Below are positions 38,408-39,150 of a stretch of DNA of 64,000 nucleotides, piece by piece; within the stretch, counting starts at the first letter, position 1, and every line of letters begins with the position of its first letter. Under the pieces are notes generated by a model that was given only the letters and a program-made list of their open reading frames with translations, was not told where the DNA came from and searched no databases. Position numbers and translations under genes: made by a program. Source of the DNA: Octopus vulgaris (lineage: Eukaryota); NCBI GenBank assembly GCA_951406725.2, contig OX597838.1:44330001-44394000 (forward strand). The letters run 5' to 3'.

Positions 38408-38924
38408 CACAATCTTACGGTCATGAGTCCAATACCCTGACTACTAAGCTACAAGCCTTCACGATGACTCTGTACTAAAAAAAATTAATCCCTTTATACT
38501 AACGATAATTGATAAGATAAAAATGTGAATTTCCAAAATGGTGTCGCACTCCTTGCCACTTCTTAAGTTGATTAACAAATTATGCAAGTGCAAACGAGCT
38601 AAAACTCTGTTAACTTAGCTGTATAGTGCAAACGAGCTAAAACTGTTAACTTAGCTTCAGTTGCAACCATGCAGTTCAGGGTTCAGTCACGGTGCTTGAA
38701 ACCTTGGGCGAGTGTCTGTTACAATAGCATTGGTTAGGCGAATATCTTGTCAGTGAACTTCCCAGACGGAAACTGTGTACAAGCTCGTTATCTCTCTCTC
38801 TCTCTCTCTCTCTCTCTCTCTACTCTCTCTCTCTCTCTCTCTCTCTCTCTCTCTCTCTCTCTCTCTCTCTATATATATATATATATATATATATATATAT
38901 ATATATATATATATATTTATTATA

Positions 38925-39036
38925 TAGAAGGAGCTTCTACAGGACTAGAACTGTTTCATTCAAGAGAAATCTTCAGGAAGCTTCCTGAAGATTTCTCTTG
39001 AATGAAACAGTTCTAGTCCTGTAGAAGCTCCTTCTA
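38925..39036. ncRNA. Perfect 112-bp palindrome encoding a hammerhead motif on each strand (+ 38979-39029; - 38932-38982)
   Basis: agcttc-CTGAAGA-t-ttc-tctt-gaa-t-GAAACAG-ttctagtc-CTGTA-gaagct, centred at 38980/38981. A unique tail at 39047-39115 follows, and the unit is flanked by (TA)n. Confidence 0.85.
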
Positions 39037-39150
39037 AATAATAAATTAATTTTACTCTGCTATGTATTGAGTACCTTATTTACTGTGGTTAACCCCGAAT
39101 CAACCCGGGACCTACATATATATATATATATATATATATATATATATATA

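Follow-up and report, generated by a model that had tools for sequence, protein, structure and literature searches.

We found that a palindrome in the octopus genome, which bears a hammerhead motif on each strand, is probably a promoter-less stub of a Penelope-like element; as read from the sequence, two cDNAs started on opposite strands of a (TA)n target would each have been extended to run-off at the 5′ terminus, likely capped, of the element's RNA and then joined via AGCT. The window (the whole 64-kb stretch of DNA analysed) contains no other non-microsatellite palindrome longer than 40 bp; at 38925-39036 this one is perfect over 112 bp, as had been claimed, and it reaches 132 bp (38915-39046) with a single mismatch, a private T>A change at 39037 that was seen in none of the 29 other fetched copies. 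The one-sided tail of about 70 bp and the (TA)n on both sides, also part of the original prediction, were recovered (Table 1). A target-site duplication is masked by the (TA)n of the two flanks, and the TATA box of the parent element is absent from the stub.

Table 1. Features of the palindrome locus in window positions; family numbering takes 38979, in the plus-strand long arm, as +1
Feature	Position	Strand	Remark
(TA)n target, left part	38870..38914		preceded by (TC)n at 38791-38870
Short inverted arm	38915..38982	-	parent +1 (38982) to +68 (38915); bears the minus-strand hammerhead, 38982-38932
AGCT joint	38979..38982		common to both arms; first four bases of the putative transcript
Type I hammerhead	38979..39029	+	+1..+51
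Parts of the plus-strand hammerhead	stem I 38979-84/39024-29; core 38985-91 and 39004-07; stem III 39007-10/39019-22	+	
Predicted cut site	after 39023	+	after +45
Long arm	38979..39115	+	parent +1..+137; corresponds to L166:3889-4025, the 5′ terminus of the parent that carries the ORF
Tail, 69 bp	39047..39115	+	+69..+137; piece of the parental 5′ leader that continues into the RT ORF
(TA)n target, right part	39116..39150		

The hammerhead that had been described on both strands is present in sequence on each, with a 6-bp stem I (AGCTTC/GAAGCT), the core CTGAAGA...GAAA, a 4-bp stem III and GUA, so that the features of type I (CUGANGA and GAAA core, three stems, NUH) can all be found. The 5′ strand of stem I had been equated with the AAGCTT at the palindrome centre; it does overlap the central AGCT but reads AGCTTC. 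Stem II, with 3 bp plus U.U, is weak. Rfam returned no hammerhead family at the locus (no hit at gathering, none among 92 loose hits), and hairpin miRNA models matched it below threshold. On its own, the ribozyme half has a folding energy of some -9 to -13 kcal/mol and is no stabler than its shuffles (z -0.4), as against -118 kcal/mol predicted for the hairpin of the full palindrome RNA; a long hairpin competing with the ribozyme fold, as originally proposed, is thus supported by RNA folding. Read-through from either side transcribes the antisense arm first, and both ribozymes would therefore sit inside a 66-bp hairpin.

Among 65 promoter-bearing arms the variants seen at least twice are confined to core position N7, loop II and loop III, a pattern that looks as expected of a conserved ribozyme. 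The accessible text on frog retrozymes reports that eight of nine predicted ones failed to cut in vitro (bioRxiv 10.64898/2026.07.22.740005). Only four of the 100 listed arm matches with another base at -6 end exactly at the predicted cut; such arms make up a small class at most, and microhomology in stem I also explains them. The minus-strand ribozyme would simply be a second copy of the same RNA 5′ end.

The search space was one assembly of 2.8 Gb in 227 contigs. It yielded 463 candidates; the 40 best scored were all full-length and 99-100% identical over 191 bp, and the 30 copies that were fetched all lie in (TA)n on both sides, with unrelated flanks. The copies sharing the palindrome centre were counted, a check called for by the original prediction: 304 have the exact 26-nt centre, another 172 have a one-base variant of it, GGAAGCTCC, and many further joints are unique. 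Exactly 592 arm matches carry another base at -6, and a 20-mer of the tail has 2,860 exact genomic matches. We took the first 100 tail matches on one contig (C1) as a sample, covering the first third of the chromosome; 96 were analysed (three were not fetched and two share a locus). Stubs account for 39 of these 96, or ~40% of the tail-bearing copies of the family, which extrapolates from this third of one chromosome to roughly 1,100 stubs genome-wide. In two flanks (L021 and L029) the (TA)n of the stub lies between inverted ends of other repeats, which suggests nested use of targets.

Single-G deletions at +46/+49, next to the predicted cut, make base errors inside the hairpins likely: we saw them in 28 of 196 stub arms (98 copies), 15 times in the long arm, 13 times in the short arm and never in both. 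They are absent from 39 promoter-bearing and 29 single arms (one larger deletion, in L273), and they are not listed at 3% in the short-read contigs of four public runs. Reading these deletions as the trace of a reverse transcriptase crossing cut RNA was rejected, given 0 of 68 in non-hairpin arms; they are probably hairpin-dependent sequencing errors (cf. the accessible part of PMC7229812). The palindrome itself as a product of misassembly or of chimeric reads, the refutation that had been anticipated, is highly improbable, since hundreds of loci with distinct flanks have the same fixed, asymmetric ends. Moreover, contigs with loose ends at +1 occur in all four public runs (four organisms, three studies), and those of two runs, X1 and X2, read from +1 into the inverted arm (..TCAGGA). 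Among the matches listed, loose ends at +68 with (TA)n behind them appear in three of the four runs and at ~+70/+72 in the fourth; loose (TA)n also follows about +141. The structure thus exists outside this assembly.

The long arm leads to a parent element whose 5′ end lacks a palindrome. One copy, L166, consists of a promoter region (with TATA), the hammerhead, the tail, an intact ORF of 722 codons from stop to stop, a microsatellite-rich stretch and a second pLTR. Upstream of +1 as many as 2,132 arms run on, many tail copies extend there without a palindrome, and at 61 places the tail runs on toward the ORF. The parent protein (P0001) contains the motifs IRWR, DKT, CNCPDKTTC (CxCX5C), CDLC (CxxC) and CMH (CxH) and has no CCHH; by eye, YRDD and LVY..YIG motifs (RT and a GIY-YIG-like C-terminal domain) can be read in the L166 protein. 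Pfam gave no significant match for this protein, and a weak GIY-YIG match (E 0.003) for the protein of PLE2, another element of the window, which is 40% identical to it. The two elements of the window itself, PLE2 and PLE1, were ruled out as parent by the lack of a DNA match.

Judged by its motifs against the accessible section 11 of PMC8557442, the parent classifies as a Hydra-type Penelope-like element (EN+). The stub shares its pLTR with an ORF for RT and GIY-YIG and has the inverted 5′-truncated copy and one-sided tail of EN+ insertions; the motif set without CCHH, the GIY-YIG-like domain, the (TA)n target and the canonical hammerhead are those of the Hydra clade. Hydra elements are described there as generally <3 kb, a tendency rather than a strict criterion, whereas the octopus parent is some 4.7-5.5 kb long (about 4.3-5.6 kb from pLTR to pLTR in L165, L166, L169, L175 and L181), with a long microsatellite-rich 3′ region. 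In L166 and L175 mixed microsatellites of 2.4-3.3 kb, common to the copies, lie between the ORF and the 3′ pLTR. The same family also contributes a tandem array (L163, G000:C8:91475109-91483644) of ~33 units of 271 bp, five of them inverted relative to the rest, which ends in a stub; each unit consists of the TATA region, hammerhead, tail and first ORF codons. Its make-up is similar to that of a non-LTR retrozyme, and short RNAs could be produced from it.

The long arms of the 96 sampled copies show where the stubs are anchored. Forty have their 5′ end at or beyond -51, four at -50..-11 and none at -10..-1; 39 end at +1..+10, eight at +11..+60 and five later. Among 18 upstream haplotypes, which had been selected for a motif overlapping the TATA box, TATAAA starts at -29 in 15 and at -30 in one and is point-changed in two; position -1 is a pyrimidine in all 18. 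The spacer from TATA to +1 differs at about half of its bases between subfamilies C and A (by eye). Tandem 5′ pieces restart at +1. Among 27 direct (TA)n joints, 11 have an extra G at -1 that the parent lacks; restricted to the ten with A at +1 and no T at -1, the count is eight. Where two whole arms meet (17 joints; an 18th was too short to score; the loci were picked from arm matches with another base at -6), 31 of the 34 arm ends have this G. Part of that count could also come from TCCTGA copied by snap-back, and a C is added by reverse transcriptases even when no cap is present. In full-length L1 insertions, according to the accessible text of PMC9341517, an untemplated 5′ G is likewise read as a copied cap. 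Taken together, the stubs are likely to mark the capped first base of the element's RNA. The joint falls at the 5′ boundary of the ribozyme because this boundary is most likely the transcription start, given the TATA box at -29 and the extra G at -1. The fold-back at the ribozyme boundary that had been envisaged is therefore correctly placed, but two cDNAs are a likelier origin than one fold-back.

One could also suppose that the +1 end is made by processing, through a splice acceptor or by trimming to the base of stem I. Positions +1/+2 are indeed AG after a pyrimidine-rich stretch, and in the accessible text of PMC4209133 an intron of D. virilis Penelope terminates at helix I's 5′ end. Still, the arms retain the AG, there is no constant upstream exon, the TATA spacing is fixed and the 2,132 arms mentioned above pass the site unhindered; we regard processing as improbable.

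To characterize the joints we used 128 distinct two-arm stubs (16 duplicate and seven complex loci were dropped; 30 of the set are top hits and hence identity-biased). Both main centres occur in every subfamily (40/14 in A, 18/5 in B and 7/5 in C), and 39 of the 128 joints are of other kinds. The subfamilies are also found among promoter-bearing arms (28, 9 and 2 for A, B and C), and four rarer tail variants are spread across centre types. As the subfamilies cross centres and are present in promoter-bearing parents, the palindrome must have been remade from parent RNA many times. The original prediction had considered a non-autonomous unit mobile in this form, and the 304 shared centres, together with the identity of the 40 best copies, are what one would expect if palindrome and tail were transcribed and retrotransposed as such. 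It is hard to reconcile with this that every subfamily and all four rarer variants cross centre types rather than inheriting a whole unit from a master copy as in SINE/MITE-like elements, that almost a third of the joints differ in kind, that the stub has no TATA box, that a hairpin of such stability would have to be copied, and that the private change in the window recurs in no other fetched copy; with a palindrome-free autonomous parent at hand, we consider a mobile unit unlikely. Some secondary copying of stubs is allowed for. A stub is probably an inert by-product, yet an unusually sharp record of mechanism.

The proposed mechanism is as follows. Pol II would start at +1, making the hammerhead the first 51 nt of the RNA. 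The element's protein would cut both (TA)n strands and prime at two internal RNA sites, at about +68 and +137. The uncut RNA, probably one and the same molecule, would be copied twice, both cDNAs running off its capped 5′ end. The cDNA ends GGAAGCT-3′ could then anneal through the self-complementary AGCT, giving the commonest joint, while other joints would arise by ligation of cDNA ends with a few extra bases. L1 twin priming likewise involves two priming events on one RNA, but it inverts non-overlapping parts, whereas the stub arms duplicate the same 5′ end. An enzyme with suitable activities is described in the accessible part of PMC11167929: in vitro, both strands are cleaved and extended by PAc, two internal starts define its tail and uncut RNA is used; it is predicted to be a dimer.

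The main competitor of this two-cDNA reading is a single cDNA whose 3′ end, after run-off at +1, snaps back on AGCT, copies itself to ~+68 and joins (TA)n by microhomology. Self-priming has been proposed for such palindromes (accessible text of PMC3846280), the 172 GGAAGCTCC centres fit a snap-back with a 3-nt loop, and short folded-back pieces are seen within some joints (L044, L108). In 125 of 128 copies both arms belong to one subfamily, and those of L129 share a private change. This agreement suggests that both arms come from a single RNA molecule or from a common source; it is equally explained by snap-back, and to that extent weighs against two cDNAs. Two cDNAs are favoured by copies in which the arms look independent. 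The unbiased sample includes 47 two-arm copies: in six of them the short arm goes beyond the long arm on the 5′ side by 15 nt or more, with the reverse in one (three pairs were adjusted by eye, none among these seven), and a short arm holding sequence absent from the long arm cannot be its copy; L054, L055 and L058 are further cases. Two whole arms may be joined across 1-2 nt, sometimes with unlike letters at +1. Short arms occur alone, ending at +68 in (TA)n without a long arm, and this fixed end matches a second priming site; they are also joined to ORF or LINE pieces, and two long arms were found in one copy. The counts come from one assembly. We give snap-back as the general origin a clearly smaller chance than two cDNAs, though it probably contributes to some joints.

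Several unusual copies were recorded alongside. In L043, L037 and L036 the partner of the arm at +1 is a LINE fragment, the ORF of the family itself or duplicated flanking DNA, joints that read as template jumps at the RNA 5′ end. L062 and L240 are mosaic stubs in which one arm is of type A while the second arm, like the tail, is of type B, possibly by template switch.

PLE2 (49031-52460) had been taken as the full-size model of the locus. The layout agrees; the family does not, as there is no DNA match between the two in the window and the proteins have the 40% identity given above. PLE2, whose inverted arm (2.1 kb) is longer than its direct arm (1.3 kb), has a hammerhead-like motif near 52289-52350, with the core CCGAAGA and a long stem II, and its family has 2,364 motif matches genome-wide. 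Of 30 family arms, 12 have their end no more than 26 nt upstream of the motif used for the search, and no arm ends at 27-130 nt; the non-parent joints are mostly found near 52260-52265, ~29 nt after TATAAC, with no clear extra G at the family's joints. The centres scatter because a terminal palindrome is missing. PLE2 thus appears as a second family showing small fold-backs of the same kind. A third family is represented by PLE1 (19940-21973, minus strand), with a Penelope-like ORF of 677 codons; a pattern search found no hammerhead core at either of its ends.

A different element, at 39151-39545, starts with CTAGCAGTATC and adjoins the right (TA)n of the stub; the same 33-bp end is found reversed beside PLE1, at 19542-19574. 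This end looks to be of Helitron/Helentron type, sharing the (TA)n target. At 8069-8510, 10460-12270 and 24206-25650 the window further contains a 37-bp tandem array of 11.9 copies that lies within LINE-like RT fragments, and another LINE RT fragment.

As far as the accessible parts of the cited papers go, the features of the locus can be compared with several known systems. An inverted copy plus a tail is standard for Penelope-like insertions (PMC8557442, PMC3846280), and hammerheads are known in pLTRs (PMC4209133). The EN+ insertions of the first two papers have head-to-head arms, a one-sided tail, a pLTR hammerhead, a microsatellite target and a palindrome at the joint, as do the stubs; the stubs differ in being minimal, their two arms stopping at a single fixed position (likely the transcription start), and in a tail of 69 bp as against 30-40. 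The stub data favour a sense, capped template, whereas the self-priming in PMC3846280 was proposed on an antisense template. PAc (Poseidon from Anolis; PMC11167929) resembles the proposed mechanism in the two internal RT starts that bound the tail, the extension of both strands, the AT-rich target and the uncut template; its hammerhead overlaps the ORF start, unlike that of the stub family, and the accessible text describes no 5′ run-off or cDNA joining for it. Non-LTR retrozymes, which are PLE derivatives (bioRxiv 10.64898/2026.07.22.740005), are like the stubs non-coding, with a type I hammerhead and a PLE pLTR origin, but they are head-to-tail tandems with two ribozymes on the same strand, while a stub is head-to-head with one per strand; the 271-bp array of L163 fits retrozymes better. 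In the freely accessible article texts searched, we found no publication on stubs anchored at a transcription start. The stubs are a variant of an already known insertion form, and the anchoring at the likely transcription start appears to be the new part.

Two cautions follow for the reading of genomes: high copy number and near-identity do not by themselves make a palindrome a mobile unit, and the occurrence of a ribozyme on each strand may itself be a by-product. For Penelope-like elements, the stubs address questions discussed in the accessible parts of PMC3846280, PMC8557442 and PMC11167929, namely the origin of inverted repeats and tails, the template strand and the role of the hammerhead. 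The family yields base-exact predictions: a start at +1, priming near +68 and +137, an uncut RNA template and joining through AGCT. As a tentative extension, to which we give less credence than to the mechanism itself, the stubs may be the Penelope counterpart of retroviral strong-stop DNA, about a thousand records of two-strand insertion on one capped, uncut RNA that could explain PLE inverted repeats generally, with 66-bp hairpins acting against the element's own 5′ leader as a silencing brake. If this is true, the stubs would pin down where the family's RNA starts, where both primings take place and how the cDNAs are joined.
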